A DNA stretch of 5,777 nucleotides from a virus (lineage: Monodnaviria > Loebvirae > Hofneiviricota > Faserviricetes > Tubulavirales): IMG/VR virus record IMGVR_UViG_2579778634_000001; one strand, given 5' to 3'. Below are positions 2,598 to 3,809 of this stretch, in pieces (the first letter of the stretch is position 1; each line of letters opens with the position of its first letter). The translations under genes were made by a program, and so were the position numbers. The notes under the pieces are model-generated. The model saw nothing but the letters and a program-made list of their open reading frames with translations, made no database searches and had not been told where the DNA came from.

Positions 2598-3809
2598 ATG
2601 CCAGTTATCACGGGTAATCTGGGGCAGGGTAAAGGCATTGTTGCAGCTTATTTTGCCTCACTTTATTATCGCCGTGGATTGCGGGTTGCAGCAAATTTTC
2701 CGCTTAACACTGAATGTATGTCATCAGGTTCGGATAACCCCGTTACGGTTATTCCCGCCATGCCCCGCATTGAAGACTTTGAGCTTCTTGGTCGTGGATG
2801 TCCTGAAAATAAAAAAACACGCTTCGGGGCGTTATTTCTTGATGAGTGTGCGACATGGCTGAATACCCGTGGTTTTGCCCGTAAGGACAGATTACCGTTA
2901 ATTGACTGGCTGATACATTCCCGTAAGCTGGGCTGGGATGTTTATCTGATTTCACAGCATGAAGATATGATTGATTCCCAGATAATTAAGGCGATGGGGG
3001 CTAAAATTATTCGCTGCCGCCGTCTTGATGAATTACGTGTTCCTGTGATTACGCCACTGATGGAATTATTCAGACCAGGAAAAACAGGGGTTGCATCAGG
3101 CAAAAGGGGGATTATTCCTCATTACGTGGCTGCCAGTACGTTTCTTTATGACGGCACGATTCACGCGGCACGTCGTCCCGTAGATAAAATCATTATCAGG
3201 GCTGCGGATTATTACAACGTTTACGACACTAATTTCATTTTCTCTGACGGAATGGAGCTGCTTAATGGCCGTTTTGTGGATATGCGTGCTGTTTATTCTG
3301 TTTTGCCCGGGCGCACACTTAAAACAATGAATCCGTTATCTCAACAACCCGAAAAAAAGGCCACCCCACAGAAAAAGCCGTGGGGCAAGCTGATTGCCTT
3401 TCTTTTCCTCGTCACCGCGATGATTGCCGTTGCCCGACATTATTTCTCCGGCGATCGGGAGGCTAGTGCCGCTGTCCCTCCTGTGCCTGAAAGCACCGTG
3501 ACACCTGCACATCCTTTGCCTGCGTCTACGGTTGTATCAGAGCTGAGACAGAAAAAACCAGATGTGCTTCCGGTATCAAAGGAGTGGCGGCTTGCCGGAT
3601 ATGTCAGGGGAGCAAGTCCTTATTTTGTGCTGCTGGGTCCGGCGGGTCAGGTGCGACGTTATACCGCTTTTCAGCCATGGAACGGCAGCGCCACGGAACT
3701 GAATGTTGACGGTGAAAAAGTGACGTTCTGGTCAGGCTCATCGGGAACGGCATCAAAGGGGGATGTGCTGACTGACAAAATGCTTTCGTTTGATGTGAAT
3801 GGTAAATAA
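2598..3809 (+). CDS. gI: Phage assembly protein pI (Zot-family inner-membrane ATPase-like), 403 aa
   Basis: Strong similarity to M13 pI (recalled): [42 protein letters not shown] versus [51 protein letters not shown] versus VVYCRRLD; N-terminal P-loop region TGNLGQGKG versus TGKLGSGKT; single transmembrane segment ([16 protein letters not shown]) after the nested start. Confidence 0.93.
3327..3809 (+). CDS. gXI: pXI-like assembly protein from an in-frame internal start within gI (160 aa)
   Basis: In-frame ATG at 3327 ([35 protein letters not shown]) sits just upstream of the basic segment and transmembrane helix, matching the position of the M13 pXI start (Met241, MKLTKIYLKKFSRVLCLAIGF). No obvious SD, so expression is inferred by analogy only. 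Confidence 0.5.

Follow-up and report, generated by a model that had tools for sequence, protein, structure and literature searches.

The question raised by this locus is what a glycine means at a Walker A position where serine or threonine is canonical. The locus is the gene I homologue (gI; 2598..3809, plus strand; 403 amino acids plus stop codon) within a 5,777-nt stretch of viral DNA (IMG/VR record IMGVR_UViG_2579778634_000001), the whole of which is called the window here. The window is part of an Escherichia coli prophage of the filamentous type (inovirus) and shares 99.6% identity with the chromosome of strain 100416. gI encodes an assembly protein of the pI/Zot family, and its Walker A motif or P-loop, GNLGQGKG (residues 6-13; 2613..2636, plus strand), ends with Gly13, encoded by GGC (2634..2636, plus strand), directly after the Walker A lysine (position K+1). 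The Ser/Thr at this position is among the most conserved residues in biology, and the recognised natural exceptions are phosphotransfer kinases (PMC9599734). A first-pass annotation had offered three explanations for the glycine, namely a weakened or inactive ATPase of a decaying prophage, a lineage-specific variant and a single-base error. The comparisons reported below showed that Gly13 is genuine and inherited and that selection has maintained it across a large clade of pI/Zot proteins.

The reading of the motif itself was confirmed by the intact 403-amino-acid open reading frame (ORF) and by alignment with pI of M13. BLASTP with M13 pI (NC_003287.2; 31% identity, E = 5e-34) aligned the P-loop without gaps and paired Gly13 with T15, Lys12 (AAA, 2631..2633, plus strand), which is the Walker A lysine, with K14, D82/E83 with D88/E89, C84 with C90, and Gln120 (2955..2957, plus strand), located at the end of strand 113-119, with Q126. 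The Walker B motif reads ALFLDE (residues 78-83; 2829..2846, plus strand). An in-frame TAA two codons 5' of the gI start codon rules out a longer N-terminus. When compared to the consensus GxxxxGK[S/T], the motif failed only at the last position, with G6, G11 and K12 as expected. The M13 motif given as GKLGSGKT in the first-pass annotation is printed as 8-GKLGSGKT-15 in the study of Loh et al. (PMC5408679). The gI product matched the Pfam family Zot (PF05707) with 37.5 bits (cut-off 20.3; 2.3e-9), its best PHROG was phrog_1675, "morphogenesis (protein I of M13)" (E = 2.4e-49), and it is present in NCBI as the identical protein WP_033866208.1; the RefSeq label of the E. coli product is "zonular occludens toxin domain-containing protein". 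The gI product thus fits the pI/Zot family with respect to profile, Walker A lysine and Walker B, predicted topology and inovirus gene context. For a single codon the question of "more than chance" is not applicable, and the relevant test is conservation, which proved very strong.

In total, 77 homologues were found, and all full-length ones, from 98% down to 34% identity, read G-K-G. A scan of genome contigs gave no more than six loci. Their hosts were E. coli, Escherichia albertii, Enterobacter roggenkampii, Salmonella enterica and Edwardsiella tarda, to which cluster look-ups added Acinetobacter venetianus, Gilliamella and Providencia manganoxydans. The 90%-identity cluster of the window protein contains 519 member sequences. 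An alignment of 19 clade members showed G6, G11, K12, G13, D82, E83, W87, N89, GWDV112-115, Q120, D126, C140, D144 and R147 to be invariant. K12, D82, E83 and Q120 were kept in 100% of 58 clade sequences, and besides these four residues about 35 more positions were invariant down to 34% identity. At the nucleotide level, seven E. coli gI copies from independent assemblies (Gambia, Japan, Mozambique, South Korea and others) all carried GGC as codon 13 of an intact ORF of 403 codons, in the midst of synonymous differences in the P-loop codons of G6 (GGT/GGG), L8 (CTG/CTT), G9 (GGG/GGT), Q10 (CAG/CAA) and G11 (GGT/GGA). For these seven copies, the ratio of nonsynonymous to synonymous substitution rates (dN/dS) was estimated pairwise by the Nei-Gojobori method; it amounted to 0.05-0.07 in the N-terminal ATPase domain (dS 0.41-0.50) and to about 0.27-0.30 in the C-terminal part. 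Within the clade the K+1 glycine is written GGC, in more distant members GGG or GGT, and GGT was also found in a copy encoding a 100% identical protein. Since the glycine is kept though its codons differ, it has been maintained through codon turnover.

The genes encoding GKG-type pI proteins lie in complete inovirus cassettes. Besides gI and gVI, these hold coat genes, a secretin gene and a gene for a replication initiator, the last of which is located upstream in full-length copies, and some of the cassettes also carry a Phage_DNA_bind gene; on the 6.4-kb single contig of one relative (P0047) no secretin gene was seen. The phages of the clade are filamentous and integrative, residing as prophages in Enterobacterales and in some further Gammaproteobacteria.

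Glycine at K+1 was not confined to this clade. When 1.84 billion cluster representatives were searched exhaustively with HMMER, 633 matches were obtained at E ≤ 1e-3. Among the best 150 of the 633, the K+1 residue was Ser in 57, Thr in 55, Gly in 26 and Asn in 2, i.e., glycine accounted for 26 of the roughly 144 scorable representatives of 50%-identity clusters, and the first approximately 19 ranks all had Gly. A neighbour-joining tree of 219 N-terminal domains, calculated with the K+1 column masked, contained one all-Gly clade of 58 sequences including that of the window, plus ten other Gly lineages. Fitch parsimony on this tree required 13 changes at K+1, a count that is rough. The group of Azospira sp. 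I13, for example, reads GKKGNGKG and is nested among GKKGxGK[ST] sequences. A second large GKG lineage, found on IMG/VR contigs and reading GKLGSGKGK, writes its K+1 glycine as GGC, GGG, GGT and GGA, so that all four glycine codons are used overall. The ten additional lineages and the 26 Gly representatives indicate that replacement of Ser/Thr by Gly at K+1 is recurrent in the pI/Zot family. The lineage-specific variant proposed in the first-pass annotation therefore turned out to be broader than supposed, with a clade of 58 sampled sequences and about ten independent origins. As a side observation, two 50%-cluster representatives carry Asn at K+1, which is another non-hydroxyl residue (P0177, GKLGAGKN; P0243, GKLGGGKN).

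The AlphaFold model of the gI product, built from a 30-sequence alignment, had a mean predicted local distance difference test score (pLDDT) of 85.7 and a predicted TM-score (pTM) of 0.83, and showed a P-loop fold over residues 1-245. The P-loop runs between a strand (residues 2-5) and a helix (residues 12-25) as loop 6-11, which in the model would place G13 in the first helical turn at the exact K+1 position. The nearest solved folds were RecA, the genome-packaging ATPase B204 of STIV/STIV2 and the Zot N-domain of Neisseria meningitidis (2R2A). These accounted for all of the best 50 fold matches, among which no nucleoside monophosphate (NMP) kinase was present; scans against Pfam and NCBIfam likewise revealed no kinase family, and a PDB sequence search gave no match.

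We consider it probable that the GKG-type pI is a functional, lineage-wide variant that has kept nucleotide hydrolysis and binds Mg2+ via water, where both the activity and the water ligand are inferred. Under this reading, pI of the clade would still be the inner-membrane, nucleotide-dependent partner of the phage secretin in assembly and export. Lys12 would hold the β- and γ-phosphates, and Asp82 and Glu83 of Walker B would organise Mg2+ and water and provide the catalytic base. The Mg2+ ligand otherwise supplied by the Ser/Thr hydroxyl would be replaced by water, by analogy to the NMP kinases with Gly at K+1. Gly is the commonest exception at K+1 and occurs in these kinases with water as Mg2+ ligand #4 (PMC9599734). 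Water-mediated coordination with Lys12 and Asp82/Glu83 unchanged is the most economical and, judged from this analogy, most likely mechanism. The absolute conservation of Glu83 and Q120 argues that chemistry, beyond mere binding, is still under selection in the clade.

For M13 pI, the first-pass annotation had regarded both the lysine and the hydroxyl residue as important for assembly. The former holds, as K14 is essential, together with D88 and E89 (PMC5408679). With respect to the hydroxyl, Loh et al. mutated K14, K9, D88 and E89 and do not mention T15 as mutated (PMC5408679). Since T15 is not among the pI mutants reported in the two mutagenesis studies (PMC5408679; preprint 10.1101/2022.09.21.508815), its importance is an extrapolation from other P-loop nucleoside triphosphatases. 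Loh et al. also note that no one has ever demonstrated an ATPase activity for M13 pI itself (PMC5408679). The Walker A deviations of Zot proteins discussed previously are the Tyr before the Lys and the Pro at position 10, and in the literature found on such deviations no mention was made of a Gly after the lysine.

Several points weigh against retained hydrolysis. According to Kozlova et al., [S/T]K+1 is otherwise strictly conserved, acts as Mg2+ ligand #4 and is a proposed proton acceptor, and its replacement abolishes catalysis (PMC9599734). Gly at K+1 in kinases was argued to suppress futile hydrolysis (PMC9599734), and following this model the GKG-type pI proteins would be poor ATPases. 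CTX-type substitutions have been reported for M13 pI (L10P, G13Y, L84F and V86F, with T15 not mentioned as mutated), of which L10P, G13Y and V86F kill its function, and in vitro ATPase activity was absent in the Zot protein of CTXphi and present in that of VFJphi (preprint 10.1101/2022.09.21.508815). Furthermore, when column frequencies were compared between three sets (large Gly clade, small Gly lineages, Ser/Thr sequences), no compensatory substitution or hydroxyl was found to be common to the Gly lineages of independent origin. Specific to the large clade are D35P, R51V/I, D54A, E73K and R130I, all at family-conserved residues, and a new acidic residue, E122, two residues past Q120; at the positions changed in the large clade, the small lineages retain the canonical residues. 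Finally, tblastn searches of 50,697 phage records with the window pI, the relative P0040 and a protein of the GKGK lineage as queries (58-59 records per query) revealed no GKG in the isolated or virome phage representatives whose pI P-loop was read, which all had GK[ST]. This set comprises f1/M13, If1, PEar6, fs2, Vaf1, Vibrio phage PE001, Ralstonia phage 1 NP-2014 and bajarodino virus 40, and excludes IKe, I2-2 and VFJ. The first-pass annotation had named multiple functional pI homologues with GKG as the finding that would speak against its suspicion; such homologues exist only as judged by evolution, and GKG was absent from all isolated phages compared.

The loss of the proposed proton acceptor, the inactive CTXphi Zot with its differently deviant Walker A motif, the lost family-conserved residues and the GK[ST] of all isolated phages compared also speak for an alternative in which pI of the clade binds nucleotide and hydrolyses it poorly. 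It might then serve as an ATP-gated scaffold or switch, or draw energy from elsewhere, such as the proton motive force or a host factor, or it might have been recruited for a role outside assembly, that of a Zot-like toxin, which has been proposed for CTXphi Zot. We regard this alternative as unlikely. If binding alone mattered, the constraint on Glu83 should relax, but Glu83, Asp82, Lys12 and Q120 are kept without exception in the clade. The low dN/dS of the ATPase domain, the linkage of gI to gVI and the secretin gene in otherwise complete genomes and the presence of a tandem array at dif also argue for retained function. A deviant motif is moreover compatible with assembly, as in the case of CTXphi, which makes virions and needs zot.

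That Gly13 represents a loss of function in a dispensable gene of a decaying prophage is very improbable. The element is a chromosomal prophage, and some related copies are damaged. In P0011 (E. coli, 393 amino acids, about 76% identity) the sequence is scrambled from about residue 250 to 340, after which family sequence resumes, as a double frameshift would produce, and this copy seems to be either damaged or misassembled; in E. coli strain 377323_2f the gene III-like gene (g3) is broken or pseudogenised. On the other hand, the glycine is fixed down to 34% identity with codon turnover under strong purifying selection, the motifs are invariant, all seven E. coli copies are intact, and the cassettes are complete, one of them forming a tandem array. 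The weakened ATPase of a decaying prophage suggested in the first-pass annotation is not supported by these data. A sequencing or assembly error by which AGC was read as GGC is refuted, although the two codons are only one transition apart, as GGC is present in independent assemblies and in all seven copies with synonymous neighbours, the cluster has 519 members, and relatives use GGG, GGT and GGA.

The gene itself is ordinary; the unusual point is that a presumed motor has repeatedly lost a near-universal catalytic residue and that this loss is conserved. The constrained and widespread GKG clade offers a natural experiment on the need for the hydroxyl in RecA-like ATPases and also asks whether extrusion of filamentous phages requires hydrolysis at all. 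Hydrolysis with water-coordinated Mg2+, if true, would be a natural counter-example to models in which [S/T]K+1 is an obligatory ligand and proton acceptor; alternatively, phage assembly in the clade would require binding of nucleotide and not its hydrolysis. The broader claim that a clade of RecA/FtsK-like motors and about ten offshoots work without the K+1 hydroxyl, either by such hydrolysis or by assembly through binding alone, appears to us evenly balanced. In practical terms, screens requiring GxxxxGK[S/T] for a "functional" pI/Zot protein would wrongly score GKG prophages as defective. Motif-based screens have already been used to classify Zot proteins of Vibrio and Acinetobacter (preprint 10.1101/2022.09.21.508815 among them), and the prophages affected include those of enterotoxigenic (E24377A) and astA-associated O166:H15 E. 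coli, of Salmonella and of others.

The predicted layout of the gI product consists of the N-terminal P-loop domain, one transmembrane segment and a C-terminal periplasmic domain. By Kyte-Doolittle analysis, a single hydrophobic segment was predicted for residues 265-279 (3390..3434, plus strand), with the top 19-residue window at residues 265-283 (mean 1.93), placed as in M13 pI (PMC5408679). Two methionines upstream of this segment, Met229, which hardly varies in the clade, and Met244, are candidate internal starts for pXI; no convincing Shine-Dalgarno sequence for such a start was seen in 3260-3330. Cysteines are present at positions 40, 68, 84 and 140 only, with none in the periplasmic part (residues 280-403; 3435-3806). 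As C332 and C347 in the periplasmic part of M13 pI are essential (PMC5408679), the contact to the secretin may be built differently in the GKG clade.

The neighbouring genes of the window are those of an inovirus, all on the plus strand. There are small coat-type ORFs and a gene III-like gene for an attachment protein (gIII; 623..2221; Pfam Phage_Coat_A 8.4e-9; PHROG attachment/virion proteins), which is followed by a gene VI-like gene for a minor coat protein (gVI; 2221..2580; phrog_1944, 1.6e-4). The latter is an ORF directly upstream of gI, as is gVI in M13, If1, PEar6 and fs2. The gIII-like gene contains an array of Gly/Ser tandem repeats (1240-1725) with a 78-nt unit of the GGSGSGSGGSSGS type, present in 5.5 copies with 97% identity. 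The gIII-like ORF has 532 codons in the window, and the annotated length of the gene varies between strains (1,356 nt in 100416, 1,386 nt in O166:H15, 1,323 nt in E300082, 1,455 nt in EC12). Downstream of gI, a gene IV-like secretin gene (gIV; 4569..5777; Pfam Secretin 8.9e-25; GspD-type secretin in RefSeq) reaches the end of the window. The secretin is the outer-membrane partner of pI. Parts of the window were matched by 268 of 5,426 complete E. coli genomes, many of these matches representing a short repeat only.

The spacer of about 760 nt between gI and gIV (3810-4568) is repeat-rich. It contains three copies of an element of about 65 nt (about 3826-3895, 4153-4224 and 4470-4535) with the pattern CCGCTCGCCGCAG..GACCGAACG.AGTGAGCGA..CGAGGAAGCGGAA, which lie within a 312-nt tandem duplication (Tandem Repeats Finder, 3925-4530, 1.9 copies, 94%). 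In related prophages a single copy is present in a gap between gI and gIV of about 110 nt. The element matched about 300 E. coli records with 92-97% identity over 55-70 nt, including many small plasmids (1.4-4 kb), and in one relative it shows the paired changes GACC..GGTC to GTTTA..TAAAC. It resembles a stretch just downstream of the ColE1/pBR322 origin, which we take to be a PriA (n') primosome assembly site, and it may be a minus-strand origin. Its folding energies were not better than those of shuffled sequences, and an Rfam scan of the window gave no match, the spacer element included.

In strain 100416, copies of the prophage are arranged head to tail next to hipBA, in a tandem array whose unit measures 8,739 bp. 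The left junction beside hipA, GGTGCGCATAA|TGTGACACGCGTTATGTTGAAA, joins the left dif arm to phage sequence, and its 11-mer, with the first base missing, recurs at the junction between the copies, which reads AGTGCGCATAATGTGAC... (junction sites at 4858-4890 and 13598-13630 of the chromosomal region of E. coli 100416 examined, L019). No intact dif was found within 21.5 kb of this region, and a search of the examined loci for E. coli dif with up to 3 mismatches revealed hybrid half-sites only. The array and its junctions represent the pattern of XerCD/dif-integrating inoviruses. In E. coli O166:H15 JNE21-009 (L015, 2569-3534) and in L020/L021 (1-762), a transposase gene of the IS110 family ("RNA-guided") is located directly upstream of that for the replication endonuclease. 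In strains with this gene the morphogenesis module lies away from dif, between hcxB and ybiB, which suggests an alternative integration module for the phage group. L020/L021 also represent a variant in which a TraX-family gene separates gI from the secretin gene. The GKG-type gI/secretin module was found with at least four types of initiator (Phage_GPA "replication endonuclease", Rep_trans, G2P_X_C and Phage_CRI; relatives L013, L020, L025, L026, L027 and L028), and modules have thus been exchanged between phages. Two candidates for an episomal replicative form as evidence of activity were rejected, the 8,429-bp contig L013, which is without terminal overlap, and the 9.6-kb "plasmid" pJNE25-005_3, a poorly assembled, fragmented and uninformative relative.

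Among known systems, the enterobacterial inoviruses YpfPhi/CUS-1 and UPphi901 share with the window-type prophage integration at dif, tandem prophages, and a phage pI and secretin. Tandem arrays have been described for UPphi and others. YpfPhi of Yersinia pestis forms infectious particles, which are abolished by knockout of its pI gene (YPO2279). The prophage carrying P0038 has the same gene layout as YpfPhi; it was not found in O18:K1:H7 strains among the matches listed, and no Yersinia names appeared in the pI clusters. UPphi901 was considered as a member of the clade and rejected, being IKe-like with about 70% amino acid identity and outside the GKG clade; from this relationship, GKT would be expected at its P-loop.

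The NMP kinases, e.g., adenylate kinase, have Gly at K+1 like the window pI. In adenylate kinases a Thr directly follows this Gly (GKGT); in the pI proteins studied here the next residue is Ile, Leu or Lys. The adenylate kinase structure 3SR0 is listed with Gly14 at K+1 (PMC9599734). These kinases form another class of P-loop proteins with phosphotransfer chemistry, in contrast to the RecA/FtsK-like model of pI, and the likeness concerns the K+1 glycine and the proposed mechanism only and is not one of membership.

The pI proteins of M13/f1/fd, If1 and PEar6 have a homologous N-terminal P-loop domain, that of an inner-membrane assembly ATPase. The window pI has in common with these proteins the Walker A lysine, a Walker B of the form hhhhDE with a Cys directly behind it, the Gln that follows the GWD strand and one transmembrane segment at about residue 265, and the gene order gIII-gVI-gI-gIV is also the same. 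As far as the sequence tells, the window protein would work as M13 pI does. In comparison to M13 pI, the window protein has Gly instead of Thr at K+1 and an N-terminal strand that is two residues shorter. Unlike the Ff phages, the element of the window is an integrated, dif-associated prophage, and gI and gIV, which overlap in M13, are separated in the window and, by a shorter gap, in related prophages. Zot of CTXphi from Vibrio cholerae, the namesake of PF05707, belongs to the same family, likewise stems from a filamentous prophage that integrates at dif, and also has a Walker A motif that departs from the consensus. CTXphi Zot deviates by Pro at M13 position 10, Tyr for the Gly before the lysine and Phe residues in Walker B, and keeps Ser/Thr at K+1, whereas pI of the window has a canonical Gly before the lysine and a canonical Walker B and deviates at K+1 only.

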